From Polyangia bacterium (GTDB lineage Bacteria; Myxococcota_A; Polyangia; JAAYKL01), in contig JBNKCR010000018.1 in assembly GCA_050287845.1 (NCBI GenBank), forward strand, positions 10,834-74,833: a stretch of 64,000 nt of DNA. Reading direction: 5' to 3'. A program made the position numbers and the translations under genes. The notes beneath the pieces were generated by a model. It did no database searches and had not been told where the DNA came from. It worked only from the letters and a program-made list of their open reading frames with translations. Shown in pieces: positions 4,735 through 20,794 of this stretch (position 1 is its first letter; each line of letters starts with the position of its first letter).

Positions 4735-7356
4735 ATGGCAGCGAAGTATCAACCGAATGAAATCGAATCCAGGTGGCAGCAGTACTGGGAAAAAGAGCGT
4801 ACGTTCTACACCCGAGAGGAATCGGATGCCCCCAAATTCTACATGCTGGAAATGTTTCCCTATCCTTCCGGCAGACTGCATATGGGGCACGTTCGCAATT
4901 ACTCCATTGGCGATGTGGTGGCCCGCTACAAAGTGAAATGCGGTTACCACGTGATGCATCCGTTTGGTTGGGATGCATTCGGTTTACCTGCGGAAAACGC
5001 CGCTATAGAGCGGGGGGTTCACCCGGCCGGATGGACTTATGCAAATATTAAAGACATGCGGGGCCAGCTTCAGAAGCTCGGTCTGGGGTATGACTGGGAT
5101 CGCGAAATTGCCACGTGTCATCCCGATTATTACCGATGGGAACAGCTCATTTTTATACGGGCCTACGAAAAAGGGCTTGTTTACCGCAAAAAGGCGCTGG
5201 TGAACTGGTCAGAAAAAATGCAGACCGTGCTGGCCAATGAGCAGGTAATTGATGGGGTGGACTATCGCTATGGATTGCCGGTGATTCAGAAGGAGTTGAC
5301 CCAGTGGTTCTTTAAAACCACCGCATATGCCGAGGAATTGCTCGACGGTATCGACAATGTGCTGGAAGAAAACTGGCCCAGGCGGGTGGTACTGGAGCAG
5401 CGCTCCCGAATCGGAAAGAGCCACGGCGCCCGGGTGGAATTCAAGCTGGAAGAGCCGGTCGACGGGGAAACTTTGCTGCCGGTATTTACCACCCGCCCCG
5501 ATACCCTGTGGGGGGTTACATTCATGAGTCTTGCGGCGGAGCATCCAATGGCACTCAAACTCGCCGCCGGTACGGAACGGCAGGAAGTGGTGCATGGCTT
5601 TGTGCAGAAAGTGCTGGCTGAGGACAAGCGAAAGCGAGGGTCAGAGGATTATGAAAAGCAAGGGGTATTTACGGGAAAATATTGCATTAATCCGGTAAAT
5701 GGCGTTCGGGTTCCCGTGTATATCGCCAACTTTGTGCTGATGGACTACGGAACCGGGGCAGTGATGGCCGTACCAGCCCACGATCAGCGCGATTTTGAAT
5801 TCGCCCGGAAGTATGGTTTGCCGGTGGAGGCGGTTATTCAGCCGGATGCAAATACAGCACTCAATCCCGCTGACATGACTGAAGCGTACGTGGACGATGG
5901 CGTTATGGTGAATTCTGCGCAGTTCACTGGCCGCAATAATCGGGAAGCCATTGAATCCATTGCCGACTACCTGGCGGAAAAGGGATGGGGCGGAAAAACC
6001 ATCAATTACCGCCTCCGCGATTGGTGTGTATCCAGACAGCGATACTGGGGCGCGCCCATTCCGGTGGTGTACTGCGACAAATGTGATGTGGTGCCGGTTC
6101 CTGAAGACCAGCTTCCCGTGACGTTGCCCGAAGATGTGAAGTTCGAAGCAGAAGGGGGTTCGCCCCTTGCAAAGTGTGAGTCGTTCGTGCACACCGTCTG
6201 TCCCGGATGTGGTGGCCCGGCCAGAAGGGAAACCGATACGTTCGATACATTCATGGAATCATCGTGGTATCAGTTGCGATACGCATCTCCCAGATATGAA
6301 GGTGGTCCGGTGGATCCGGCAGCCATCGAAAAGTGGTTACCGGTAGATCAGTACATCGGTGGAATTGAACATGCGGTGGGCCATCTGATGTATAGCCGGT
6401 TTTACCATCGACTGATGCAGGATTTGGGCTTTTTTCCTGAAACGGTGTCGCCGGAACCATTTCACCGGCTGTTGACCCAGGGCATGGTATGCAAGGAAAC
6501 CCGGTTCACCCGGGACGAAAATGGCAATCCGGTGTGGCACACCGATGACGATATCGATGAAAACGGACTGAGTCGCAAGAATGGCAGGAAGGTGCTTACC
6601 GGGCGGGTGGAGAAAATGTCGAAGTCTAAATACAACGGCGTTGACCCCGAAGCCATCATGAAAAAGTATGGAGTGGATTCGGCGCGAATGTTTGTTCTGT
6701 TTGCAGCGCCGCCGGAAAATGATCTGGTGTGGAAGGATGAGGGCGTCGATGGCGTGCATCGGTTCCTTACCCGGGTGTGGAACATGGTACAACAGCGCAT
6801 GGACGAGCTGAAGAATGCTGCGGTGTTCGACGGAAATGCAGCCGCCCTGAGTGATGCCGGACAGGAACTTCGCAAGCTGACGCATCAGACCATCAAGGGA
6901 GTGACAGAAGATGTTCATGAACGATTCCATTTCAATACGGCAATTGCCAAAATCATGGAGTTCATGAACGCCATTTCGAAGTTCCGTGTGGACGGGAAAA
7001 ATGATGCGGACGCGGCGGTCCAGAAAGAAGCGGTGCTGGCCCTGACAAATCTGTTGTCTCCATTTGCCCCCCATATCTGTGAAGAAATATGGCAATTGCT
7101 GGGACAATCCGGCAATGTGGCCACAACGGCATGGCCCTCTTTTGATGAAGAAGCAATCAAAGAAAATACGATCACTATCGCCATTCAGGTGATGGGCAAG
7201 ATGCGGGGTACCGTTGAGGCGCCAGCCGGTTGCTCAAAAGAGGAGATGGAAAAACTCGCCCTTGCACACGAAAACATTCAAAAGCATATTGAAGGTAAGA
7301 CCATCCGGAAGGTCATTGTGGTCCCCGGCAAGCTGGTCAACATCGTTGCGAATTGA
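4735..7356 (+). CDS. leuS: Leucine--tRNA ligase
   Basis: EMFPYPSGRLHMGH (HIGH), FTTRPDT, GTGAVMAVPAHD (CP1 editing), SRQRYWG, KMSKS, C-terminal VPGKLVNIV. Confidence 0.98.
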   Translation: MAAKYQPNEIESRWQQYWEKERTFYTREESDAPKFYMLEMFPYPSGRLHMGHVRNYSIGDVVARYKVKCGYHVMHPFGWDAFGLPAENAAIERGVHPAGWTYANIKDMRGQLQKLGLGYDWDREIATCHPDYYRWEQLIFIRAYEKGLVYRKKALVNWSEKMQTVLANEQVIDGVDYRYGLPVIQKELTQWFFKTTAYAEELLDGIDNVLEENWPRRVVLEQRSRIGKSHGARVEFKLEEPVDGETLLPVFTTRPDTLWGVTFMSLAAEHPMALKLAAGTERQEVVHGFVQKVLAEDKRKRGSEDYEKQGVFTGKYCINPVNGVRVPVYIANFVLMDYGTGAVMAVPAHDQRDFEFARKYGLPVEAVIQPDANTALNPADMTEAYVDDGVMVNSAQFTGRNNREAIESIADYLAEKGWGGKTINYRLRDWCVSRQRYWGAPIPVVYCDKCDVVPVPEDQLPVTLPEDVKFEAEGGSPLAKCESFVHTVCPGCGGPARRETDTFDTFMESSWYQLRYASPRYEGGPVDPAAIEKWLPVDQYIGGIEHAVGHLMYSRFYHRLMQDLGFFPETVSPEPFHRLLTQGMVCKETRFTRDENGNPVWHTDDDIDENGLSRKNGRKVLTGRVEKMSKSKYNGVDPEAIMKKYGVDSARMFVLFAAPPENDLVWKDEGVDGVHRFLTRVWNMVQQRMDELKNAAVFDGNAAALSDAGQELRKLTHQTIKGVTEDVHERFHFNTAIAKIMEFMNAISKFRVDGKNDADAAVQKEAVLALTNLLSPFAPHICEEIWQLLGQSGNVATTAWPSFDEEAIKENTITIAIQVMGKMRGTVEAPAGCSKEEMEKLALAHENIQKHIEGKTIRKVIVVPGKLVNIVAN

Positions 7357-7378
7357 GCGCGGATAATACGGAGAATCA

Positions 7379-8164
7379 ATGTCGAACATTGTCATTAAAA
7401 GTGAAGCAGATCTGGTGGAAATGCGAAAGGCCTGCAAGCTGGCAGCCAGAACCCTGGTGGAAGCGGCCAAATTAATTGCACCAGGCGTTACGACAGACGA
7501 AATTAATCGATTTGTGCATGACTACACCATTAAACACAATGCCACGCCCGCCCCGCTGGGATATCGCGGATATCCCAAAAGTGTATGTACATCCGTCAAT
7601 GAGGTGATTTGCCACGGGATTCCCAGTGATCGAAAGCTGAATGAAGGCGACATCATCAACGTGGATGTGACGTCCATTCTGAACGGCTGGCACGGGGATG
7701 TCTCTGCCACATTTTATGTGGGCAACGTTTCTGATGAAGTGCGTAATCTGGTGGAAGTCACCCGGGAGTGTCTGAAAAGAGGCATAGAAAAAGTGAAGCC
7801 CAAAACCCGGCTGGGAGATATTGGCGCGGTGATTCAGCAATACGCGGAGTCCAACGGTTTTTCAGTGGTGCAGGATTTTGTGGGGCATGGCATTGGTCGC
7901 AATTTTCATGAAGGGCCGCAGGTGTTGCACTTTGGTAAGGCAGGCCGGGGACAGCGGCTGATTCAGGGAATGACTTTCACCATTGAGCCCATGATCAACC
8001 AGGGCGATTACCGTTCTGTCATTCTGGACGACGACTGGACGGCGGTCACCGTTGACGGCAAGTTGTCCGCGCAATTCGAGCATACCATTGCGGTGACGAA
8101 TGACGGCGTTGAAATTATGACGGCGTTCGACGAACCGCTCCTTAACAGCGAAGTTTTCAAGTAA
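7379..8164 (+). CDS. map: Methionine aminopeptidase type I
   Basis: CTSVNEVICHGIP, NVDVT, HGD, GHGIGRNFHE, TIEPMIN, SAQFEHT. Confidence 0.97.
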   Translation: MSNIVIKSEADLVEMRKACKLAARTLVEAAKLIAPGVTTDEINRFVHDYTIKHNATPAPLGYRGYPKSVCTSVNEVICHGIPSDRKLNEGDIINVDVTSILNGWHGDVSATFYVGNVSDEVRNLVEVTRECLKRGIEKVKPKTRLGDIGAVIQQYAESNGFSVVQDFVGHGIGRNFHEGPQVLHFGKAGRGQRLIQGMTFTIEPMINQGDYRSVILDDDWTAVTVDGKLSAQFEHTIAVTNDGVEIMTAFDEPLLNSEVFK

Positions 8165-8165
8165 T

Positions 8166-9335
8166 TCAATGGGCGCAGTGATGGTGCGCAATCACATCAT
8201 CGTAGATGGATTCCAGCTGTTTCACCCGCGAAACGATGTTGTACTCCGATTCCATTTTGATTCGTGCGGCAATGCCCATCTGCGCGCGGAGATCCCGATT
8301 GTTCAGCAGCGCAATCAGATGTTTTGCAATGGATGCTGCGTCACGTTCCGGCACCAGAAATCCCGTTTCGCCATGGTCGATAATATCCGGGATACCACCA
8401 TGCAGGGTGCCGATTCCCGGAACACCTGAGGCAGCGGCTTCCTTGAGGACAATGATGCCGGATTCCCGGTCTAGATTTTTCGCAATGACGCTCGGGGCCA
8501 TTACCACAAACGCCTGATTCATGAGATCCCGCACGTCATTGTGGGGAAGGGGGCCGGTGAAGCGCACGTGGGACGACAGGTTCAGCTCGGAAACCAACCG
8601 TTCGCATTCCATGCGCAGCGGTCCATCTCCCACCAGCACCAGCTTAAAGTTACACCCTGCATCCCGGGCCATGGCGGCAGCCCGGATGCCGTAGATATGA
8701 CCTTTTTTTTCTACAAATCTACCCACCATCAGTACGATGGGCGCCGTTCCGGCAAGGGGGGTGTTGGTGGGCTGAAACATGTCAAGGTCGATACCCAACG
8801 GATTGACAATCACTTTTTCGGCAGGACATCCAATCTGTTCCATCAGTTGCTTCAGTTCCGTGGATGCAGCAAGGAACAGATTGGCGTCGCGGAACAATGT
8901 CCGAAAACCGGAAAGGTATTTCCAGTACCCGGGATGAAACCGATCGTTGCCAAGCAGGATGGTGACGTCTCTGCCATGAAGGGAAACCACCAGCGGCAGC
9001 TTGAAGGCCCTGGCGTATGGAAGCGCGTACAGGCCATTGTGGCCAAAATGGGCGTGGAGAATATCCGGCTGCAGCTTATGGATTGATTCGAAAAACCGTT
9101 TGTTTCGTCCGGTCAGTCCATACCAGAGCGATGCCAGCGGGTGTCGCTCCTCTGGCAGTTTTTCCACATACTCCACCTGATGTCCCGGGAACTGTGCGTG
9201 GTTTTTCCACTGCCGGGTAAAAACCGTTGCCTCATATCGTTCGTGATGACGAAGCTCATCGTGAATGAAGGTTTCTGAATAGTGCAAAAATACATTGCGA
9301 AAGAGTCCAACATGTCGCTTCTCTGTGTCGGTCAC
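8166..9335 (-). CDS. GT4 glycosyltransferase (WcaL-like)
   Basis: SETFI, HAHFG, HGRD, VGRFVEKKG, ESGIIVLKEA, HGGIPD. Confidence 0.88.
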   Translation of the reverse strand: MTDTEKRHVGLFRNVFLHYSETFIHDELRHHERYEATVFTRQWKNHAQFPGHQVEYVEKLPEERHPLASLWYGLTGRNKRFFESIHKLQPDILHAHFGHNGLYALPYARAFKLPLVVSLHGRDVTILLGNDRFHPGYWKYLSGFRTLFRDANLFLAASTELKQLMEQIGCPAEKVIVNPLGIDLDMFQPTNTPLAGTAPIVLMVGRFVEKKGHIYGIRAAAMARDAGCNFKLVLVGDGPLRMECERLVSELNLSSHVRFTGPLPHNDVRDLMNQAFVVMAPSVIAKNLDRESGIIVLKEAAASGVPGIGTLHGGIPDIIDHGETGFLVPERDAASIAKHLIALLNNRDLRAQMGIAARIKMESEYNIVSRVKQLESIYDDVIAHHHCAH

Positions 9336-9478
9336 CCGTGGTTTCTCCTTCTCGGTTTAATTTCACCAGTCGCGTATTCAACCGGCACATTGGCACCTGG
9401 CTGCGGCTTTACCATATCCGGGCACAAAAGAGCAGGAGAATGTTCCGCCTCGAAAAATTTTTCATGGACCCCGGGACG

Positions 9479-9922
9479 TCACCCCGGCAACGTGCTCTCC
9501 ACCCACTGAACGATGCGGTTGGCGTCCATTGCGCCGGAGGCTCTGTTGACTTCCTTACCATCCCGGAACAACGCCATAGTGGGAATGGAGCGAATATTGT
9601 ACATGGCCGAAATCTGCGGTTCCTTTTCGGTGTTGAGCTTGAGGTACACAACTTTGCCTGAATGACGGCTGGCGGCGCCTTCGAATTGAGGCGCCATCAT
9701 CCGGCAGGGTCCACACCAGGGGGCCCAGAAATCGACAAGGACCGGCAGATTGCTTCGGGCGATAATCCGGGAAAATATTTCTCCATTCACTTCGCTGGGC
9801 TTCGGGGAAATCAACGGCAGGTGGCACTTTCCGCATTTGCCATCGATGACATCCTTTGTGGGTGGAATCGCGTTCGCGGCGCCACAGTGGGTACAGACAA
9901 CGAGTTTGTTGTTATCACTCAT
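9479..9922 (-). CDS. trxC: Thioredoxin 2 (Zn-binding TrxC)
   Basis: N-terminal CTHC/CGKC zinc site plus DFWAPWCGPC. GGAGG RBS before the ATG at 9922. Confidence 0.93.
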   Translation of the reverse strand: MSDNNKLVVCTHCGAANAIPPTKDVIDGKCGKCHLPLISPKPSEVNGEIFSRIIARSNLPVLVDFWAPWCGPCRMMAPQFEGAASRHSGKVVYLKLNTEKEPQISAMYNIRSIPTMALFRDGKEVNRASGAMDANRIVQWVESTLPG

Positions 9923-10901: not shown

Positions 10902-11315
10902 ATGATAGATTCTCGCTGGACACAGAAGGACGAGTTAATCGACATACTGCTCGATTTAAAGCATGACCTCGGAAAATACCTGTTTCTCCATTTGTCCCAT
11001 CTGACCGTTGATTCCCCGCCGGATATGGTGAAAGAAGCGTTGAAGACTGCCCTTTTCGAGACCCGGAAAGTGGGGGGACGCGTGCAGACCGCGCGGGAAA
11101 TCTGGGATCGGTATCACAGTGAAATAGACGCTCTGAATTATGCGTTTTCAAGCTATGAGTTGTTGCGCGCAGCCATTGCAGAGGCATTGGAAATGCGGCG
11201 TTTCCTGGACGCCGAGGATAGCGCTCCCGCTCCCCACGTCGGGCAAATCCAGAAGATTGCCAGACAGGTGTCAGAAACCATTCAGCAGATTATTGGGGAG
11301 GAAAGCGATGAGTGA
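10902..11315 (+). CDS. Small helical protein with an H-box-like motif (LKHDLGKY); putative stand-alone phosphoacceptor
   Basis: Amphipathic helices with HDL near the N-terminus. Its 3' end overlaps the start of the sigma54 activator gene. Function is inferred. Confidence 0.6.
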   Translation: MIDSRWTQKDELIDILLDLKHDLGKYLFLHLSHLTVDSPPDMVKEALKTALFETRKVGGRVQTAREIWDRYHSEIDALNYAFSSYELLRAAIAEALEMRRFLDAEDSAPAPHVGQIQKIARQVSETIQQIIGEESDE

Positions 11316-12960
11316 TCGGATTCGTATACTGCTCGTGGACGATGGTGACACGTATGCGGAGCTTATCCACAGACACATGCCGGAATGTGAGCTGATTGTC
11401 GATAATCGGAAGGGGGATGCCCGCACCTGTATCGGAGATGGCCCATCTGCCATTTCATTTCTTGAGACCTACCGGGGCCCCCTTGATGCCGTGTTGCTGG
11501 ATATGCATTTTGACATTCCCGAGGACCGCCTGTTTACGCTGGATGAAGGAGCCAGTCTTCGCCGAACCAAACGATTTCAGGGGGTGGCTATTCTGCGGGA
11601 GATCCATGAGCGTTTTCCGGCGCTGCCAGTGGTCCTTCTGACGTCACTCGAAGATTTGTCCCTGGTGGATGCCGCCAAAGATCTGATTTCCCAATCCATG
11701 ACCTATGTTTTGGACGGCCAGGATTTGGATGCCCTGCGTGTTCGGATTGCGTCTGCCACCCGGCGATCCAGGGTGGAGGATGACAGTAGCCGGGTGTTGT
11801 GGGGAAACAACAGCGCCATGAAATCCATTCAGCGCCGACTGACGGTATTGGCCAGGGGGAGTATGCCGGTGATCCTGGAAGGGGAGACAGGTACCGGGAA
11901 ATCATGGCTGGCTGAACAGTTTGTACACTTGAACAGTCGGCGAACCGGCCCCTTCGTGGTGCTGGATCTCTCCACCATCCCGGAGAATCTGTTATCGGCG
12001 CATCTGTTTGGCGCGGTGAAAGGTGCATATACGGGAGCGGTGGAAAATCGCAAGGGCGTCTTCGAAATGGCAAATGAAGGGACGCTGTTTATCGATGAAA
12101 TCCAGAATGCGCCTTTAGAAGTGCAGAAGCAGTTGCTGCTGGTGCTCCAGGATCGAAAGGTGCGGCCGCTGGGCAGTCCACGGGAGATTCTCGTGGACGT
12201 GAAAGTGGTGGCGGCCAGCAACCGACCGCTGGATCAGGCAGTGGCCTCCGGTTCGTTTCGCCCGGATTTGTACATGCGCCTGTCTCCGGCCACCCGCGTT
12301 CAGATTCCGCCCCTGCGCCATCGACTGGAAGATTTGCATTATCTGGCTGATCGGTTTACCCGCCGCGCTATGCAGAACAACGACATCGCCGCAATGGTCA
12401 AAGAAGTGGCCGATGCTATCGGCAACAGAACCGTTTCGGATATTCGCCTGGTGGTCGGACGAAATTCGCGTCCCGGAGATGATGACGCTGTTCATCTGGT
12501 GGTGCCCAATCCGGTGTGGAAACTGCTCGAGAGTCACTCGTGGCCCGGAAACATCAGAGAACTTGAAATGCTCATTTACAATCTTATCACGTTCACGCTG
12601 GTTGATACTATCGATACACTTCGCCGGGGAATTCCGATTTCAACCAGCAATCTGCAGGTGGACGCCGGCCTTGTGGGCAATCTCATTCAGAGTGCGCGGG
12701 TGCTTCCGCTGCCGGATAGCCGGCAACCGGGACAAAACACAGACGACAATGCCATTTCGGTGACGCTGAAATCCGCCACCACCCTCAACGACGTGGCCAA
12801 CGATGTAGAACGCCAGTATTTTCTGTCGCTGTTTCGCTCCTGTAAACGGGATTTTTCCATGATGGCCCGCGTTCTTCTCGGGGATACGGCTAAAGCACGC
12901 GCGGTGCGGCTGCGATTTAACCAGCTGGGGTTGCGCGTCAGAGAAATCGAGCCGCGATGA
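11308..12960 (+). CDS. Sigma54-dependent enhancer-binding protein with an atypical N-terminal receiver domain
   Basis: ILLVDDG...LLDMHFD...LLTS (REC); GETGTGKS Walker A, GAYTGA loop, LFIDEI Walker B, FRPDLYMRL, WPGNIREL; divergent C-terminal helical/HTH region. Confidence 0.9.
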   Translation: MSDRIRILLVDDGDTYAELIHRHMPECELIVDNRKGDARTCIGDGPSAISFLETYRGPLDAVLLDMHFDIPEDRLFTLDEGASLRRTKRFQGVAILREIHERFPALPVVLLTSLEDLSLVDAAKDLISQSMTYVLDGQDLDALRVRIASATRRSRVEDDSSRVLWGNNSAMKSIQRRLTVLARGSMPVILEGETGTGKSWLAEQFVHLNSRRTGPFVVLDLSTIPENLLSAHLFGAVKGAYTGAVENRKGVFEMANEGTLFIDEIQNAPLEVQKQLLLVLQDRKVRPLGSPREILVDVKVVAASNRPLDQAVASGSFRPDLYMRLSPATRVQIPPLRHRLEDLHYLADRFTRRAMQNNDIAAMVKEVADAIGNRTVSDIRLVVGRNSRPGDDDAVHLVVPNPVWKLLESHSWPGNIRELEMLIYNLITFTLVDTIDTLRRGIPISTSNLQVDAGLVGNLIQSARVLPLPDSRQPGQNTDDNAISVTLKSATTLNDVANDVERQYFLSLFRSCKRDFSMMARVLLGDTAKARAVRLRFNQLGLRVREIEPR

Positions 12961-15830
12961 CACAGCTTTCGGCATATCTCCTGCTGATGATGCTGGCACA
13001 GAGCGCAGCACCTCTCGAAGACAACGACACCGATCAGGCTGCCGACGTGCCGGTTCCAATGATGCCGAACATTATGGCCCCGGCGGAGGGGATGGATTCT
13101 GAAGTCGCTGAAGATTTGAAGGCCGCGATTGCGAATCTGGCCAGAGAAAAGAATGAGCAGGGCAAGAAACTGCTGAAAAGATTCAAGTATCCCGAGGCAT
13201 TGGCATCGTTTCGGGAAGCCTATGAATTGGATCCGCAGAACGCCGAAGTGCTGAATAATTTTGGATATGCCCATGCGCTTCTGGGAAATTTTGAAGATGC
13301 GCAGAAATACTACGAAGAATCCATTCTGATCGCACCGGATCGCTCGGTGGTATACCTGAATTACAGTGATTTACTGGTAGAATTTTTCCCGGAAGATGAA
13401 AAGAGTCTGAGCAATGCGGCGGCACTGCTCATTAAAGCCAGGGAATTGCTCGGCAACAGCCCCCGGGTGATTATTCGCCAGGCCAGGCTGGAAGTTCTTC
13501 GCGGTCAGCTGCCCGAGGCGGAGCGATATTATCGCGAATATCTGGTACAGCGAAAACCGAACGACAAGCTTAAGATTGAGCTGGGCGACTTCTTTCGCGA
13601 TATGGGAAAAACAGATGAGGCGATACAATGGTATGAATCCGTAAAAGATGAACCGACACTGGCCATTGCCGAAGGGCGTCTCTGGGAGATGGAAGTGGCG
13701 GCGCAAAGTGTTCGGCTGGGGTGGCAGGGGGACAAGGTATCGCCGCAGTCGGAACGGTTGGCCGCCAGCGCGCAGAAACTGTTCAACGCCAAAAAATATG
13801 TTCAGTCAGAACGGTTGTATCGCCAGGTTCTCAAGGAATCCCCCATTTATGCCGGGGCCATGGCCGGCTTTGGCGATTTGCTGTACCGGACAGGAAGAGT
13901 GCATGATGCGGAGATGTACTGGCTGAGAGCGCTGGTTATCGACCGGGACAACCCGTCGCTGTACGCAAAACTGGCGCAAATGTATCTGGACCGAAAGAAC
14001 CGCGACCAGGCGTCATGGGCTGTGGTCTTTTTGTCCCGCGCACTGGAACTCCGTCCCCAATGGATCGATTTGGAGCTGGATTTGGCGGTGGCGTTGCGGG
14101 AAACCGGAGAGCCGCTGGGGGCGCTGTCCCACGTTAAACGCTATCTGAATCGTGCTGAAGCCGATGATGCCAAACGGCAGGACGCCATGAAATTGAAACG
14201 GGCCCTCGAAACCCTGATTCCCGCGGAGGCACTGATTGAGAGTGGTCTGGATGAAGCGGTGCAAATCGATGGCGATGAGCTGAGTCCCGCTCTGTCGGAG
14301 TCACTGCGCAAGGCAAAAGCTCATCTGAAACGGGGAAGTCTGAACGGTGCCATGGCGGCGCTGCGAAACCTGGATGAAAAAGATCGCGGGCCGGTGGTGC
14401 TGAATCTGGAGGCGCGGATTCTGATGGGGGCAGGCAAAATCAGGGATGCGCGGGATGTGATGATCGAGTCGCTGCAGAAGGTGGAAAGCCAGCCCATTAT
14501 TCATGAGCAGTTGGCCCGGGCCTACATCGAACTCGGCAATCCCCGAAGGGGACGGATTCACCTGCTGCGTGCGGAACAACTGGGATACACGGGTGCCACC
14601 TATCTGCTGGCCAAACTGGATGCCGGAGATTTGGGCGAAGATTTTATATCGATTCTGAAAGATTTGGCCCGACTTCGGCAACTGATGCTGGCGCAAAAGC
14701 GGATTCGGTCGTTTTTGCTGAACGATTCGGCCTCCATTTATCGGGCGGAAGCGCGGGCATTACGGGATAAACTCGCAGATCGTTTTGATGCGTTCAAATC
14801 CATGGCGGCATTGACGCTGCTCTCTCTGGCCCTGGTGCTGTTCATTCTGTTCCTGCGCATCTGGGGAGGTACGGATTTGCGGCGCCTCATTGCAAAGCAT
14901 CCGGACGCCGGCATTCAGATTCAACGCACGTTGTCGGCCATTCGACACGAGGTACTCAAGCACAATACCATGATGCTGGTTGGTCTGGTGGATGCCATCG
15001 AATCCGGAGAGGATGTGTCGGCACGGGTAGACCATTTTCACAAAAAAATGCTGGGCGAAAATGGCACCGGTGGGGTTCAGGCGCGCCTTCAGCACTATAT
15101 TTCGGAGTTGAAGCAGATTGGAGATGCCCATAAGAAACGGTTGAACCTGAAGCGGAAAGATGCCGTGACGTCTCCGCTGCTGCGGGGAATGAAACTGATA
15201 CAGCGAAACCGTTCAAGACTGCTCAGATACGGGCAACTTTCGAGTGCGTCAAAAACGGCGTTGAAAAAAGATTTGAAAGCCGCCTCTTCATTGCTCAACA
15301 TTGAAGGATATGAAGCGGTCCGGGATTTGTTGAATCAACTCCGAACCCTGGCAGTGAATGAGGCGCTCTTGCGTTCGGTATATGAACAGTGCATCATGGA
15401 ACCGGCATTTGCGGGTGTGCCATTCGCACCGCTGCGCATGACACTGGAAATCGCTGAAAACAGCGCAGTCAACGTGGCACTCCCCAGAGCTGCATTTGAA
15501 GATATAGTGACCAACCTGATTCGCAACGCCATTCAATCCTCGCTGATATATGGCGAAGCCTCCTCGAAGGTGGAAATTGCCCTGGCGCTCCAGACCGAAG
15601 TGGATATGGTAACGGGTATCGAGCGGGCAGTGCTCCTGGTGAAGGACAAGTCGCCCCGGGAGTTGACGGCCGAAATGTTGCGCGGGCGGTATATTGAAGA
15701 GGGGTTGGGGCTGACAGCGGATCTGGTGACGCGGTACGATGGGACGCTCGATGTGTTCAGCGGGGATGACCAATGGCAAAAAGCAGTGGCTGTAAAATTA
15801 CCCGTGGCCACCTATGGCGATGACACGTGA
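12957..15830 (+). CDS. Membrane sensor: signal peptide + TPR array + TM + histidine-kinase-like domain
   Basis: Hydrophobic N-terminus, many TPRs (e.g. ELDPQNAEVLNNFGYAHALLG), TM MAALTLLSLALVLFILFLRIWG, H-box-like AIRHEVLKHN, N-box TNLIRNAI, truncated G2 EEGLGL. Confidence 0.75.
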   Translation: MTQLSAYLLLMMLAQSAAPLEDNDTDQAADVPVPMMPNIMAPAEGMDSEVAEDLKAAIANLAREKNEQGKKLLKRFKYPEALASFREAYELDPQNAEVLNNFGYAHALLGNFEDAQKYYEESILIAPDRSVVYLNYSDLLVEFFPEDEKSLSNAAALLIKARELLGNSPRVIIRQARLEVLRGQLPEAERYYREYLVQRKPNDKLKIELGDFFRDMGKTDEAIQWYESVKDEPTLAIAEGRLWEMEVAAQSVRLGWQGDKVSPQSERLAASAQKLFNAKKYVQSERLYRQVLKESPIYAGAMAGFGDLLYRTGRVHDAEMYWLRALVIDRDNPSLYAKLAQMYLDRKNRDQASWAVVFLSRALELRPQWIDLELDLAVALRETGEPLGALSHVKRYLNRAEADDAKRQDAMKLKRALETLIPAEALIESGLDEAVQIDGDELSPALSESLRKAKAHLKRGSLNGAMAALRNLDEKDRGPVVLNLEARILMGAGKIRDARDVMIESLQKVESQPIIHEQLARAYIELGNPRRGRIHLLRAEQLGYTGATYLLAKLDAGDLGEDFISILKDLARLRQLMLAQKRIRSFLLNDSASIYRAEARALRDKLADRFDAFKSMAALTLLSLALVLFILFLRIWGGTDLRRLIAKHPDAGIQIQRTLSAIRHEVLKHNTMMLVGLVDAIESGEDVSARVDHFHKKMLGENGTGGVQARLQHYISELKQIGDAHKKRLNLKRKDAVTSPLLRGMKLIQRNRSRLLRYGQLSSASKTALKKDLKAASSLLNIEGYEAVRDLLNQLRTLAVNEALLRSVYEQCIMEPAFAGVPFAPLRMTLEIAENSAVNVALPRAAFEDIVTNLIRNAIQSSLIYGEASSKVEIALALQTEVDMVTGIERAVLLVKDKSPRELTAEMLRGRYIEEGLGLTADLVTRYDGTLDVFSGDDQWQKAVAVKLPVATYGDDT

Positions 15831-16312
15831 TGGAGGTGAACACGATGGACACGGTAGTACTGATAATTGAAGATGGGGATGAATACCTCGACAGTCTGAG
15901 TCAGTTCGTGCAGGGACCGGAATATCTGCAAGCCAAAAGTGGCGAACAGGCGGTGGAGATTCTCCAGACGCGAATGGTCGATTTGATTTACCTCGACATG
16001 CGGTTTGACCGGATTCCCATGACAGATTTGCTCGGTGATCATGTGAAGGCCACCCGGGAACATAACGGCGATCCGTTGCGGGCATTTAAATTTTTGCAGA
16101 ATAATCAGGGACTGTTTATTCTGGAAAAGCTGCGCAAGGAGAATCTGGTCCATATTCCGGTGATCCTGGCGTATGATTTTTCGAGGCAACAGAAACGGTA
16201 CGAGCATTTAAAACGGATACATCAGAGCCTTCGCTGGGTGCCGGATGCCGTCACACCGACCGAAATTCGAAACCTGATGAACGAATGCATTGTCGAACGG
16301 GCAGGGCGGTAA
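15827..16312 (+). CDS. Single-domain atypical response regulator
   Basis: VLIIEDG...IYLDMRFD...QGLFILEKLR...IPVILA. The conserved Lys is absent. Confidence 0.75.
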   Translation: MMEVNTMDTVVLIIEDGDEYLDSLSQFVQGPEYLQAKSGEQAVEILQTRMVDLIYLDMRFDRIPMTDLLGDHVKATREHNGDPLRAFKFLQNNQGLFILEKLRKENLVHIPVILAYDFSRQQKRYEHLKRIHQSLRWVPDAVTPTEIRNLMNECIVERAGR

Positions 16313-16313
16313 G

Positions 16314-17012
16314 ATGCCGGTACGTGGCGATCGTCTCGCATGGCCTTATGTCCCCTGTCTGCTGATGTGCATTCTGATTGTTCAGTCTCCATGCATTGCG
16401 AAAACCGATACCGAAGGTCCGCCACGGCCCACCACCTGCGACACTCTTTCCGGCGCCACCCGGGTCAAACTGCCTCTGGCGCGCATTGTTGCGTTGGATT
16501 TGGCCATGTACGCGGGGTTGGTGATTTTGTGGCCTTACGCGTTTTCGCCAAGTGAAGGCAGTATTGAGCAGTTCAGGGAGAGCTGGACCGAACGGCCATA
16601 CATGAACTACAGTAAAATCTTTTTTGAGCTGGATGACGATCCGTGGGCGATTAACACGGTCCTTCACGGACTGTACGGTTCAGAAGTGTATCTGGCAGGT
16701 CGCACCATCGGCCATTCCGGTCTGGTATCTTTTTTATATGCCATGTTCGCTTCCGTGACCTGGGAGTATCTGGTGGAGGGATGGTTTCATCAGCCGTCGG
16801 CCATCGATTTGGCCTGGACCCCCGTGGCCGGTGCGGTGATTGGCGAGCTGCGCTTTCAGCTACTCCGCATCATCATGATGCACGTGTCTTCCCGGATGCT
16901 GCGTAATATCCTCATGACCACCCTTGACCCCATCGGCCAACTGGAACGCGCCATCATGGGGTGCACCATCCGATGCGGCTACAGCTTGCGGAGATCGTCC
17001 AGTTCTTTCTGA
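16314..17012 (+). CDS. DUF3943-like membrane/exported protein
   Basis: DDDPWAINTVLHGLYGSEVYLAGR...SVTWEYLVEG...PSAIDLAWTPVAGAVIGE resembles the DUF3943 pattern. Its 3' end overlaps the convergent nadE. Confidence 0.65.
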   Translation: MPVRGDRLAWPYVPCLLMCILIVQSPCIAKTDTEGPPRPTTCDTLSGATRVKLPLARIVALDLAMYAGLVILWPYAFSPSEGSIEQFRESWTERPYMNYSKIFFELDDDPWAINTVLHGLYGSEVYLAGRTIGHSGLVSFLYAMFASVTWEYLVEGWFHQPSAIDLAWTPVAGAVIGELRFQLLRIIMMHVSSRMLRNILMTTLDPIGQLERAIMGCTIRCGYSLRRSSSSF

Positions 17013-18934
17013 AATCCGCCGCTGAGGATGGGGAAGCGGCACCAGGTTTTGGGATCGAGGTTTTCGTCATCCAGATGAAAGGAGGGCGCGTATCGCTCGC
17101 GTTTCCATTGATTCCGGGCCCACAGGGTGAAAAATCGAATAATCCAGTTTTTCAGCACATCGGTGGGGGCATCCAGTTCAATCTGTAGCAGTTGGAAGAT
17201 TTGAACCGGGCTCTTTCGGTCGCGAATGGCCAGCTTTTCAATGGACTCCAGTACGGTATAGGGCATCAAATCAGTTTCATCCGTCTGGGAGCGTTCCAGG
17301 GGACGGAGCTCCGCAGTGGGATTCTGTGCGGTAATAACGCTCAGGAACGGCAGGGGGGGCAATCCACAGACCCCTTTCAGTTCCACCTCGGACAGCCACT
17401 GGAGCAGATATGCCTTGTCGATACCGGCAATGGGGCTCAATCCACCACTGGTATCTCCATCCATGGTTGCATATCCCACTGCTGCTTCGGAGCGGTTACT
17501 GGTGGAAACCAGCAGGGCACCCCGGATATTGGCCAGCATCCACACCCCCGGTGCGCGCACCCGGGCCTGAATGTTCTGAAGCGCAAGGTCATCCTGTTCC
17601 CAGGAGAGCGGTCGGTTCAGGGCATGGCATAGCATATCGGTGTACGACGATACTAGACCATCCACATCCCATTGCATGAACCGCGCGCCGATGGACTGGG
17701 CCACCGTCCGTGCCGCAGCGAGGGTAATTTCTGAGCTGTTGCGGGTCCCCTGGTACACACAGGAGAGCAGCTCGTTGACTATCGCCGACGCAGTATCCGC
17801 TGCCCCGGTCAGAAACGATGCCCTGGCGCGAATTCCTTCAGGGCCAATCTCTTTGAGTGCCAACTCCACCATGATTCTTACGAGGACGGCCACTGCCCCG
17901 GAATCTGCCCCGCCGCTTAAGGACAGGACAAACCCTTTTGAATGGCTTTTGGTCATGTAATCCCACAGACCAAGACTGACCGCGCGAGCGAACTCATCGG
18001 ACTTTACGGACGCCATCTCCCGGATGGGCTTCTGGGGCAACGGTGTACGTGGCGCTTCAAAATGGGGCGCATCACACACCACCTCCGGGGTTCGCTCACC
18101 GGACGAGCCGGACGATCGTTGGGTTTTCTGCATGCGAGTGAATTCAATATCAACATCGTGGACCAGCAGGTCAACGTCCCGGAATGTGAAACGCGGCCCG
18201 CTGGCCACCATTTTGCCGGCGGACGCGATGAGTGCACCGCCATCATACACGATTCGGCCAGCTTCGTTACCCACCATGTTGGTGTAGATATATGTGGCGG
18301 CGAAGGCCCTGGACCCTTCACGAACAAAGGACTGACGGGTTTCGTACTTGCCGAAACTGAAATGACTGGCACTGGGATTGAGGATAATATCCACACCGCG
18401 TCTGGCCAGCCGGATACCGGGACGTTCGGCGACCCAGGCGTCTTCGCAGATTTCGAACCCGATGCGAACATTATTGATATTAAAGAACAAATCGCCAAAA
18501 GGAACCGGATTTCCATCTATGCGCAGCTCACCCCGCCGTCCGGCCTTCCATGGTTTGAACCAGCGTGGTTCATAGTGAATGCCATCGCCGGCCAGAAATT
18601 GCTTGGCCACTATCCCGCGAATCTGCCCGGTACTGATTAGTGCGGCAGCGTTATACAGCGCGCTTTCAAAGAATATCGGAAGCCCCACTGCCACAGTGAT
18701 ATCGGTGCAGTCCGCAGTACACGCCAACAGGGTGGAGAGTGCGGTGTCCTGCACGAAGGGTGAGAGAAAGGCATCTTCGCAGCCATATCCGGTGATAGCC
18801 ATTTCAGGCAGGCACAGGAGGGAGACCCGTTGTTCTTTTGCCAGCTGAATTGCCTTGCGGATGTTGTTGAGGTTCCGGCCCCAGTGGAGCGGTGTCTGGT
18901 TCAGGGTTGCGGCAGCGACGCGTAATGCCTTCAT
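16979..18934 (-). CDS. nadE: Glutamine-dependent NAD+ synthetase
   Basis: Nitrilase domain (LPEM, KQFL, EICED) plus SGGADS, QNIQAR, NRSE, PTAEL, NQWKR. Confidence 0.96.
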   Translation of the reverse strand: MKALRVAAATLNQTPLHWGRNLNNIRKAIQLAKEQRVSLLCLPEMAITGYGCEDAFLSPFVQDTALSTLLACTADCTDITVAVGLPIFFESALYNAAALISTGQIRGIVAKQFLAGDGIHYEPRWFKPWKAGRRGELRIDGNPVPFGDLFFNINNVRIGFEICEDAWVAERPGIRLARRGVDIILNPSASHFSFGKYETRQSFVREGSRAFAATYIYTNMVGNEAGRIVYDGGALIASAGKMVASGPRFTFRDVDLLVHDVDIEFTRMQKTQRSSGSSGERTPEVVCDAPHFEAPRTPLPQKPIREMASVKSDEFARAVSLGLWDYMTKSHSKGFVLSLSGGADSGAVAVLVRIMVELALKEIGPEGIRARASFLTGAADTASAIVNELLSCVYQGTRNSSEITLAAARTVAQSIGARFMQWDVDGLVSSYTDMLCHALNRPLSWEQDDLALQNIQARVRAPGVWMLANIRGALLVSTSNRSEAAVGYATMDGDTSGGLSPIAGIDKAYLLQWLSEVELKGVCGLPPLPFLSVITAQNPTAELRPLERSQTDETDLMPYTVLESIEKLAIRDRKSPVQIFQLLQIELDAPTDVLKNWIIRFFTLWARNQWKRERYAPSFHLDDENLDPKTWCRFPILSGGFQKELDDLRKL

Positions 18935-19034: not shown

Positions 19035-19970
19035 ATGCAGGCTACCGGTTTCAATTTCAATTCGCTGTTCCTCATCAACGTGCTTTTGGGGGCCATTTCC
19101 CTGGTGGCGTTCGGCTGCGGAGACAGGGCTGCAACTGAATTGAATCCCGCTAGTGATTTCGACAACAACGGAACAGTCGCCGTATCGTCTGCGATGGTTC
19201 CCGCTGCGGAGAGCGACCTCAGAAGAGGGGGACAGAATTCCGGGCGCGCCGTTGTGGAAATTTCAGATTCAAACCCCCTGTATCCGCTGACAGAAAGCCC
19301 CGAGCGACTGAAAGTCCCCGGTTTCAACCATGCCGTGTTTGTCTCTCCATCGGCGCAATCCAACACTGCCAGACCGGTAGTGATCGTGCTGCATGGCAAT
19401 TTCGACCGACCGGAGTGGCAATGCGATATGTGGCAGTCGGTTGCATCCTGGTATGGCTGGATCCTGTGTCCGCGAGGCGTGAGAACCCCGTGGGCAACAG
19501 AGGCGGAAGATCGGTGGACGTATCGAGGTGGTGCGAAAACAGTAAGTAGCGAAATGATGGCAGCGCTGGCGGCTCTGGAATCCAGATTCCCCGGGGCAGT
19601 GACCCGGGAAGGCGCGGTTCTGGTTGGATTTTCCCTCGGGGCCATATTGATCCCGGAACTGATTCAATTGCATCCGGACTGGTTTGATACGGTATTTTTA
19701 ATAGAAGGTGGACTGAAACAACTTGATAGACACTTGCTGAGTATGAAACAAAGAGGAGTTGAACGGATTGGTCTGGCAATGAGCACTGCTGGCAACAGGC
19801 AAAAAACATCAGGAATTCAAGTGAAAATTAAGCGAAAAGGCCTTGTTTCCGTCTATGTTGATATGCGCGGCGCCGGTCACAATTATCGGCAGGATTTCCG
19901 TTCAACCGGCCAAAAGGCGTTGCGATATTTACTCGGGGACACTAACGATCTGACAGTGAGCAACAGATGA
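19035..19970 (+). CDS. Alpha/beta hydrolase lipoprotein (esterase-like)
   Basis: Lipobox AFGC, VLHG, GFSLG nucleophile elbow, GAGH. Confidence 0.75.
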   Translation: MQATGFNFNSLFLINVLLGAISLVAFGCGDRAATELNPASDFDNNGTVAVSSAMVPAAESDLRRGGQNSGRAVVEISDSNPLYPLTESPERLKVPGFNHAVFVSPSAQSNTARPVVIVLHGNFDRPEWQCDMWQSVASWYGWILCPRGVRTPWATEAEDRWTYRGGAKTVSSEMMAALAALESRFPGAVTREGAVLVGFSLGAILIPELIQLHPDWFDTVFLIEGGLKQLDRHLLSMKQRGVERIGLAMSTAGNRQKTSGIQVKIKRKGLVSVYVDMRGAGHNYRQDFRSTGQKALRYLLGDTNDLTVSNR

Positions 19971-20794
19971 ACTCAAAATCGGTTTTCCATCCGTTCCGGC
20001 TAATTTCCTGTGCGATACTCATACTGTGCGCAGCAGGATGCGCAAAACACTCGGATTCCTCGGATTCGGGGGCACGCTTTCATTTGAAGATTCAGGACTG
20101 GAACGACGACAGCGGTCAATTTTCGGCGTCTGATCTGGCTGTCCGGTTGGCGCCGATAATTCAGAAATTACCTGGACTGACAACCAAAGACACGCCCATG
20201 CTGTTTGTTCGCGGCAATATACATACCGATGAGACGGGAAGCGTGATGGTGCTCGAGGGGCGGTATCTCTTCAGAGTTTCCAATGCGTCTGCACATTTAC
20301 CCGTGAAAGTGGTTGTCATGGGCAGTATCGAAGGAACTACCGTAGCCCGACGGGAAAGTCTGGTGAAAGGTGTTCTTAAAGATCTGAAACAGGCGATCAG
20401 CGCGAATATCCGCATCTGCAATGGTTCAAAAAAAACGTGGATTGCCGCATTGAAGTCGCCGGAACCGGATGAGCAGATTCTTGCGCTTTCCATTCTCAGA
20501 GATCAGAAAGTTGCCGCCGCTGCCCCCGGTGTGATTGGCTTATTGGATGACCCCAGAACGGAAGTCGGACAGGCAGCTGCCGAAACCGCTGCCGTACTGG
20601 CCAGCCCCGAGCACGTGAGTCGCATCATTCGCATCGCGCAGAACGGTGGTCTTGAAGTGGAGGCAAGGTGTATTCAGGTGCTTTCCAGCATTGGCGGTCC
20701 GGATGCCATTGCGTGGCTTGAAATGCTTGCGCTTGGTCATCAGAATTCCCAACTGAGGGAGCTCAGCTTTAATGCATTAAAAAGATTGAAATAA
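19967..20794 (+). CDS. HEAT-repeat lipoprotein
   Basis: Lipobox AAGC and C-terminal HEAT-like repeats (LLDDPRTEVGQAAAETA; CIQVLSSIGGPDAIAWL). Confidence 0.65.
   Translation: MNSKSVFHPFRLISCAILILCAAGCAKHSDSSDSGARFHLKIQDWNDDSGQFSASDLAVRLAPIIQKLPGLTTKDTPMLFVRGNIHTDETGSVMVLEGRYLFRVSNASAHLPVKVVVMGSIEGTTVARRESLVKGVLKDLKQAISANIRICNGSKKTWIAALKSPEPDEQILALSILRDQKVAAAAPGVIGLLDDPRTEVGQAAAETAAVLASPEHVSRIIRIAQNGGLEVEARCIQVLSSIGGPDAIAWLEMLALGHQNSQLRELSFNALKRLK

Follow-up and report, generated by a model that had tools for sequence, protein, structure and literature searches.

The sporulation relay of Bacillus subtilis passes from KinA to Spo0F, Spo0B, and finally Spo0A, keeping its H1, D1, H2, and D2 components on separate proteins. 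In the Vibrio relay, the hybrid kinases LuxN, LuxQ, and CqsS signal to LuxU, a recognizable histidine phosphotransfer (HPt) protein, and LuxU signals to LuxO, which carries a canonical receiver. The present analysis concerns a group of genes whose products resemble the parts of such relays, located in a 64,000-nucleotide stretch of a Polyangia bacterium genome (GenBank assembly GCA_050287845.1, contig JBNKCR010000018.1, positions 10,834 to 74,833), hereafter the window. Four of these genes, g1 to g4, form a conserved cassette that may encode a split phosphorelay ending on a sigma-54 activator, and a fifth, g5, follows them. An earlier note, drawn up from the sequence alone, had described five genes on one strand, each overlapping or abutting the next at its stop codon, and all open reading frames and junctions lie as it described (coordinates are those of the window):

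10902..11315, plus strand: g1, 137 amino acids (aa), predicted standalone helical-bundle protein, proposed phosphotransfer (H2) protein
11308..12960, plus strand: g2, 550 aa, sigma-54 activator with an atypical receiver
12957..15830, plus strand: g3, 957 aa, putative sensor kinase with a periplasmic TPR region
15827 or 15830..16312, plus strand: g4, 161 or 160 aa, single-domain receiver-like protein
16314..17012, plus strand: g5, 232 aa, DUF3943 membrane or exported protein

The ATG of g2 at 11308 lies within g1, whose stop codon occupies 11313-11315. A common ATGA at 12957-12960 joins g2 to g3, with the g3 ATG at 12957 and the g2 stop codon at 12958-12960. Two in-frame candidate starts of g4, GTG at 15827 and ATG at 15830, overlap the g3 stop codon (15828-15830), the ATG being the likelier of the two, and a single base separates the g4 stop codon (16310-16312) from the ATG of g5 at 16314. 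The motifs that had been read in the translations are also all present, namely LKHDLGKY in g1, GAYTGA in g2, and in g3 RHEVLKHN together with the lack of DxGxG.

The conserved four-gene cassette

To assemble a set of related loci, one genome per species was scanned for the invariant kinase motif, which yielded 145 stretches. Of these, 132 encode relatives, and the 80 best loci were taken further. All 80 derive from metagenome-assembled genomes (MAGs). Most of them bear the label Myxococcota, Polyangia, Bradymonadia, or ‘Deltaproteobacteria’, and the label given to a few is evidently wrong. Cassette contigs titled as Klebsiella pneumoniae, Bifidobacterium breve, Enterobacterales, or Enterobacteriaceae MAGs (L042, L073, L077, L033, and L062-L069) look like cases of such mislabelling. 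The loci were searched by tblastn and with hidden Markov models (HMMs) built from their own alignments; these models are circular for the sequences that went into them, and 13 of the g1 detections are new.

The gene order of the cassette is kept across most of these loci. Where the position could be tested, the receiver gene g4 directly follows g3 in 72 of 76 loci, the activator gene g2 is upstream of g3 in 65 of 68, and g1 directly precedes g2 in 59 of 64, a linkage that exceeds chance. Apart from three loci that are considered with the relay below, the exceptions for g1 consist of a frameshifted copy (L020, 5912-6319) and a copy lying 0.7 kb away (L058). An apparent g1-g2 fusion in L052 (5871-7914) was rejected; its frame turns to nonsense after about 50 g1 residues and thus reflects a frameshift rather than a true fusion. 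Long frames that seemed to join g3 to g4 were likewise ruled out, g3 and g4 being in different frames.

Co-occurrence across genomes points the same way. Among 401 genomes sampled evenly from the phylum, g4 was found in 85, g1 in 81, and the C-terminus of g3 in 86, each as a single copy in nearly every genome that carries it. All three occur together in 76 genomes, about a fifth of the sampled Myxococcota, against 89 that contain at least one of them and 312 that contain none. Six sampled genomes with g3 and g4 but seemingly without g1 turned out to hold a distant variant of the cassette, and five of these were retrieved (G400, G360, G355, G240, and G220). In these genomes g1 gives a weak match (E 4e-7 to 1e-3 against a small set), and all five have g4, g1, and g2 side by side. 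The order is g3-g4-g1-g2 in the four genomes where the same stretch includes g3, upstream of the other genes; in G220, g3 sits on a separate contig. The kinase of the variant is shorter, with a small periplasmic part, and the motifs LRHE[FL]LKH, HD[VIL]GKY, EDGxEY, DLRFER, QQG, and HDF are all retained. In the variant locus L088 (G240:C1, a 9.07-Mb single contig), a FIST-domain protein and a 527-aa protein with no Pfam match are encoded on the minus strand between g3 and g4 (6820-9682).

The internal structure of the cassette is apparent from a 9.4-Mb single-contig genome, in which g3-g4 lies at 0.93 Mb and g1-g2 at 3.30 Mb. Because the members of each pair stay together when the blocks separate, the conserved unit comprises four genes in two tight pairs, g3 with g4 (kinase and receiver) and g1 with g2 (histidine protein and activator). 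No gene other than g1-g4 is consistently linked to the cassette across the loci examined.

This holds for g5 too, and the five-gene unit originally proposed shrinks to four genes as a result. The product of g5 matches DUF3943 (5.2e-26) and contains hydrophobic segments. In a study of the Lipocone superfamily, DUF3943 is placed in that superfamily as ‘YfiM-Griddle’, with a predicted action on outer-membrane lipid head groups (PMC12419801). Since g5 follows g4 in only four of 72 testable loci (L001, L002, L003, and L007, all of them the closest relatives), it is a lineage-specific local passenger outside the conserved cassette, and the suggestion that the DUF3943 product is a relay component or the likely ligand of the TPR array loses its footing.

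The kinase, the receivers, and the small histidine protein

The g3 protein begins with a short hydrophobic leader and has Pfam TPR matches over approximately aa 66-560. Its C-terminal third has no Pfam match in this protein, HisKA and HATPase_c included, and yet at least 137 proteins of uncultured Myxococcota, about 950 aa long, make up the family that it defines. In the sources, members of the family are named only ‘TPR repeat protein’, ‘TadD’, or ‘hypothetical protein’, and one of 120 carries a precomputed HATPase_c annotation among the matches listed. The candidate membrane and catalytic elements of g3 are as follows:

14784-14879, plus strand: one strong transmembrane segment (aa 610-641)
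14943-14966, plus strand: H-box RHEVLKHN (aa 663-670)
15513-15527, plus strand: N-box NLIRNA, with N853, R856, and N857
15645-15647, plus strand: Asp897 of the G1 box, where DKSP replaces DxGxG
15702-15710, plus strand: G2 box GLGL, with G916 and G918

Every residue of R663-H-E-V-L-K-H-N670, as well as N853, R856, N857, D897, G916, G918, and K942, is invariant in the 26 full-length sequences and in all 77 C-terminal sequences. The pair H664-E665, an acceptor-type histidine followed by an acidic residue, falls in a helix (651-682) of a structural model of aa 625-957 computed from the 77 sequences, for which the mean predicted local distance difference test score (pLDDT) is 93.4. Searched with Foldseek, this model retrieves histidine kinases at E 1.6e-8 to 6e-7 and probability 1.0, among them LvrB (8vc9, 1.6e-8), the kinase entry 4kp4, ZraS, HK853, CpxA, and KinB. 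HATPase_c is matched by 46 of the 77 family members at E≤0.1 (best 2e-8) and HisKA by none of the 77 at the same threshold. When the family profile is compared with the catalytic domain of NtrB, the N..RNA, D..P, and GLGL boxes align (E 0.0056). Given the invariant His, N-box, G1 Asp, and G2 residues, the fold matches, and the HATPase_c matches in relatives, g3 is predicted to be a very divergent protein of the histidine-kinase type with a GHKL fold. The description of g3 as a kinase without DxGxG therefore needs qualification: DKSP does stand in its place, but the ATP site is not missing, since its N-box and G2 box, like the Asp of G1, do not vary.

The cassette encodes two receiver-like domains, one forming the whole of g4 and the other the N-terminal part of g2, with the following candidate active-site positions:

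g2 receiver, plus strand: D11 and D12, Asp65 (11500-11502), an insertion, Thr112, and Asp136 at the Lys position
g4, plus strand: E15 and D16, Asp57 (15995-15997), an insertion of about 30 aa after beta3, Tyr116 at the Ser/Thr position, and Asp140 at the Lys position

Neither is an easy match to Response_reg. The g4 protein reaches 2.5e-6 and 28.1 bits against a cut-off of 30.2, over beta1-beta3 only, and the g2 receiver stays under the Pfam cut-off (E 0.076, 13.6 bits), with 57 of its 62 relatives matching at E≤0.01. The acidic pair and the Asp are kept in both, and both align to the Protein Data Bank (PDB) receivers AdeR, NtrC1, and Spo0F over beta1-beta3. Across 70 relatives, g4 has a mean column identity of 51% and an invariant set made up of E15, D16, G17, E19, Y20, D57, M58, F60, D61, R62, L68, G70, D71, Q94, G95, D117, F118, and R124 (70/70 for E15, D16, and D57); its insertion is placed between the Asp and the Gly that begins helix 3. 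In g2, D11, D12, and D65 are invariant in 62 of 62 relatives and Thr112 is present in at least 90%. There, Asp65 is held in the sequence LLDMHFD, followed by an insertion shorter than that of g4 and then by QG. The two domains share 24% identity (E 1e-4). A search of the host genome with the g4 profile gave three matches: g4 itself, the g2 receiver, and, covering beta1-beta3, a weak one in a frame the size of a kinase. Besides g4, only the g2 receiver is matched beyond beta3. The two domains belong to the same receiver subtype.

Beyond its receiver, g2 has the hallmarks of a sigma-54 activator. It matches Sigma54_activat (PF00158) at 4.1e-53, as do 62 of its 62 relatives. The GAYTGA loop lies at 12022-12039, its Tyr being kept in at least 90% of the 62, and the Walker A motif GETGTGKS and the Walker B residues D263 and E264 are invariant. 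An insertion ahead of sensor II had been claimed for this protein, and one is indeed present in the lid domain, where the Pfam AAA_lid_14 match is limited to residues 403-436. The C-terminal end is helix-turn-helix-like and contains a highly conserved motif, LLGD...RLRFNQLGL, with HTH_8 matched by none of the 62 members at E≤0.01. The sigma factor itself is encoded in the genome, as an rpoN (TIGR02395) on contig C111 scores 449 bits, over the cut-off.

The remaining member, g1, has no Pfam or NCBIfam match. His21 (10962-10964) lies within LKHDLGKY, and 47 relatives share the pattern L.DL.HDLGKY, in which His21 is kept in 47 of 47, Asp22 in 46, Gly24 in 45, and Lys25 in 46. The histidine of KHDL, on whose conservation the earlier proposal had staked much, is thus invariant. 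The g1 model is a five-helix bundle with a small hairpin (pLDDT 94.6). On helix 1, L12, L16, L19, L23, and L27 form a hydrophobic stripe, and His21, together with Asp18 and Lys25, is on the opposite face. His21 is therefore most likely solvent-exposed, a position deduced from helix periodicity. Foldseek returned no PDB match to the model at E≤0.001, and a wide structural search returned generic bundles. The homologue P0125 was similarly uninformative, with no usable feature match and generic helical structural neighbors. A profile search of 1.84 billion representatives gave 499 clusters for g1. Since the 150 clusters listed are all 105-240 aa long, g1 appears to be a standalone protein; no fused g1 was found among longer proteins, although for fusions the search yields weak evidence. 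The HDLGK motif raised the alternative of an HD-phosphohydrolase. This was rejected, as the motif is only 20 residues from the N-terminus and neither the conserved upstream His nor the downstream Asp needed for such a site is present.

A candidate phosphorelay and its rivals

We give a probability of roughly one half to the reading that g1-g4 constitute a split His-Asp-His-Asp phosphorelay, passing from g3 to g4 to g1 to g2 and ending on the sigma-54 activator. Under this proposal, the membrane kinase g3 would sense a periplasmic signal through its TPR array and autophosphorylate on His664 of the RHEVLKHN helix by means of a GHKL ATP site that is divergent yet intact. The phosphoryl group would move to Asp57 of the single-domain receiver g4, in the manner of Spo0F, then to the exposed His21 of g1, acting as an HPt or Spo0B-like protein, and finally to Asp65 of the g2 receiver, whereupon the AAA+ domain would remodel the sigma-54 holoenzyme at its promoters. 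All phosphotransfer steps and their sequence, like the signal from the periplasm and the regulon, are inferred. The relay is favored because the components are those expected of a multistep relay, the four candidate sites are invariant, and the gene order of the distant variant matches the order of transfer. As for the dedicated envelope-sensing relay suggested in the earlier note, the co-occurrence of the genes, the invariant His, and the lack of a characterized match speak for it, while the part assigned to the DUF3943 protein does not survive.

Several observations weigh against the relay. At the level of the genes, g1 is not beside g2 in three loci (L008, L030, and L041), although it is found on other contigs of those genomes, and no fused forms (g3-g4, or g1 with another protein) that would tie the parts together were found. 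A scan of the window for sigma-54 promoters gave 29 matches against 39 expected, none of them near the cassette, and no candidate target genes of g2 were identified near the cassette. In g3, the glycines of the G1 box are absent and the ATP lid is short. About 80 extra helical residues (688-699, 707-724, and 738-756) stand in the model between the His helix (651-682) and a long helix (763-796), and pyruvate dehydrogenase kinases are matched by the model nearly as well as histidine kinases (Foldseek approximately 2e-7 to 5e-7). For g1, the Pfam Hpt family is matched by 0 of 47 members and a PDB profile search was empty. The receivers raise further difficulties. Tyr116 of g4 falls opposite the Thr of AdeR, in a low-scoring second segment of the alignment, and Asp140, present in at least 90% of relatives, falls opposite the AdeR Lys; Asp136 of g2 in turn falls opposite Asp140 of g4. 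Neither the 70 g4 sequences nor the 62 g2 sequences have a conserved Lys in the expected region. Because Asp replaces the conserved Lys, both domains count as pseudo-receivers that retain the Asp site, by the definition given in PMC12632262. Intermediary receivers of known relays keep the Ser/Thr and the Lys, according to PMC9981736, and for this reason the two receivers represent a real departure from known relays.

An ordinary, if divergent, two-component pair is a reading that is possible but not probable. Here g3 would phosphorylate g2 directly, g4 would be a phosphate sink or modulator, and g1 would be a non-phosphorylated binder that tunes g2 or g3 as an anti-activator or connector. In its favor, the g2 receiver has four of the five active-site residues of a receiver, including Thr112, and g4 only three. 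The g1 protein, for its part, matches no HPt model, and its gene shows translational coupling to g2 and remains next to it in the genome where the two blocks lie apart, as would be expected of a binding partner. However, a binder has no need of an invariant, exposed His that is followed by Asp (+1), Gly (+3), and Lys (+4), all kept in the deepest variants; the His helix of the kinase shows the same local pattern, H-E-V-L-K; and the g3-g4-g1-g2 order of the distant variant places both g4 and g1 between kinase and activator. It is also unlikely that the cassette works by partner switching independent of phosphorylation, in which the receivers would be true pseudo-receivers, g3 a pseudokinase or ATP-binding scaffold, and regulated binding would free or hold the AAA+ activator. 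The Lys-to-Asp change in both receivers, the Thr-to-Tyr change in g4, and the degenerate G1 box (DKSP) of g3 would all suit such a mechanism, as would the definition of pseudo-receivers, a class whose mechanisms are described as unknown (PMC12632262). Against it, every residue required for ATP binding or for His and Asp chemistry that the sequence reveals is invariant in the 26-77 aligned homologues per protein from related genomes. In g3 these are the His-Glu pair, the Asn of the N-box, the Asp of G1, and the glycines of G2, and in the two receivers the acidic pair and the Asp site of each. Loss of function usually lets such residues drift; moreover, substitutions at DD, T, or K need not abolish phosphorylation (PMC12632262). 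A final alternative concerns g3 alone, as a GHKL kinase of the PDK/BCK type or an anti-sigma-like one would act on a Ser/Thr of a partner and not on its own His. The Foldseek matches to pyruvate dehydrogenase kinases (PDKs) at about 2e-7 extend over 337-369 columns, compared to 220-300 for histidine kinases, and the additional helices that separate the catalytic domain from the His helix would fit, but we consider this very improbable.

Should the phosphorelay operate, its receivers would have to manage without the usual residues. The invariant Arg59, Arg62, and Arg124 of g4 could possibly stand in for those that were lost. A more specific and quite doubtful idea is that the receivers are completed in trans by a donor Lys four residues after the His of their partners (H-E-V-L-K in g3 and H-D-L-G-K in g1). 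The His sites of g3 and g1 share the pattern H-[D/E]-[L/V]-x-K, and the Lys at His+4 is invariant or nearly so in both proteins and is kept in the distant variant. If this were true, the receivers would be phosphorylated or dephosphorylated only when docked on their own His partners, and the relay would be chemically insulated from other kinases, phosphatases, and small-molecule phosphodonors in a genome rich in two-component systems. It would amount to a new means of pathway specificity in His-Asp signaling.

Genomic setting and comparison with described systems

In the window, the cassette is flanked upstream by housekeeping genes, encoding LeuRS, methionine aminopeptidase, a glycosyltransferase, thioredoxin, and a GNAT protein, and downstream by a convergent gene for NAD synthetase (16979-18934, minus strand). 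The 3' ends of g5 and the NAD synthetase gene overlap by 34 bases (16979-17012). Further downstream on the plus strand, the stop of a 311-aa ORF without a Pfam match (19035-19970) overlaps the start of the next gene, which encodes a HEAT-repeat protein (19967-20794). A scan of the window for sigma-70 promoters and terminators gave nothing above shuffled sequence. The seven Band_7 (SPFH) matches of this genome are on contigs other than that of the cassette, and a scan of four stretches of roughly 3.5 kb around them gave no sigma-54-like motif, so that no link between the cassette and SPFH genes is seen.

Elsewhere among the 80 loci, a canonical hybrid kinase (PAS-HisKA-HATPase_c-receiver, from Pfam searches of two representatives) lies beside the cassette or between g2 and g3 in seven, at these sites:

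L013, 7561-9267: hybrid kinase
L023, 6006-7592: hybrid kinase
L030, 5747-7807: hybrid kinase
L031, 36-2141: hybrid kinase
L032, 3448-5652: hybrid kinase
L033, 1776-3881: hybrid kinase
L038, 3955-5706: hybrid kinase

Since a hybrid kinase needs a His shuttle, these neighbors may feed g1 as a shared one; the arrangement fits but is infrequent. A VIT-VWA protein (Pfam searches of two) is encoded a few kb downstream of the cassette in four loci (L040, 11243-12904; L046, 11232-13865; L052, 15005-16675; L054, 12456-15059).

The idea that the cassette had not been described before has held up, as Pfam, NCBIfam, and PADLOC matched no characterized system and literature searches (supplements aside) found no description of it. 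A defense function was considered and set aside, because the PADLOC matches were confined to a weak one for g4 and, between g2 and RtcR-type models, one that is generic for AAA+ proteins.

If the proposed relay is correct, the small group of multistep relays known to end on a sigma-54 activator would gain a member, and the sensor modules of kinases would come to include a large TPR array in the periplasm. The cassette also provides a natural test case for whether Asp-keeping receivers that lack the Lys or Thr can join phosphotransfer and how they are switched, a question posed in PMC12632262. The receivers here share their cassette with a free His protein and a kinase, both with invariant catalytic residues, and a direct in vitro test of the four proteins is therefore feasible. 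Relative to the pseudo-receiver class as a whole, the g4 and g2 domains belong to the Asp-keeping subset and are set apart by a family-specific insertion after beta3 and by the Lys-to-Asp change. Their company also distinguishes them from most described pseudo-receivers, since the cassette encodes a free His protein as well as a kinase in which the His and the residues of the ATP site are retained.

By analogy, the cassette appears closest in logic to the Spo0 and LuxU-LuxO relays. As in Spo0, four separate proteins would be involved, with a single-domain receiver as the first acceptor, a small His shuttle, and a receiver-bearing transcription factor as the last component. Unlike in Spo0, a single cassette unites g1-g4, and the relay would act through a sigma-54 AAA+ activator. 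The predicted g1 protein is a monomer-sized helical bundle without the pseudo-catalytic domain of Spo0B, the kinase has a putative periplasmic TPR sensor and no HisKA match in Pfam, and both receivers are without the conserved Lys. With LuxU-LuxO, the cassette shares a free shuttle of HPt size that would act on a sigma-54 activator of receiver-AAA+-helix-turn-helix architecture, and the shuttle gene adjoins the activator gene. In contrast to the Vibrio relay, the first receiver is a separate protein, g4, rather than a domain fused to the kinase, g1 is not recognizable as an HPt by any model, and the receivers of the cassette fall by definition among the pseudo-receivers.

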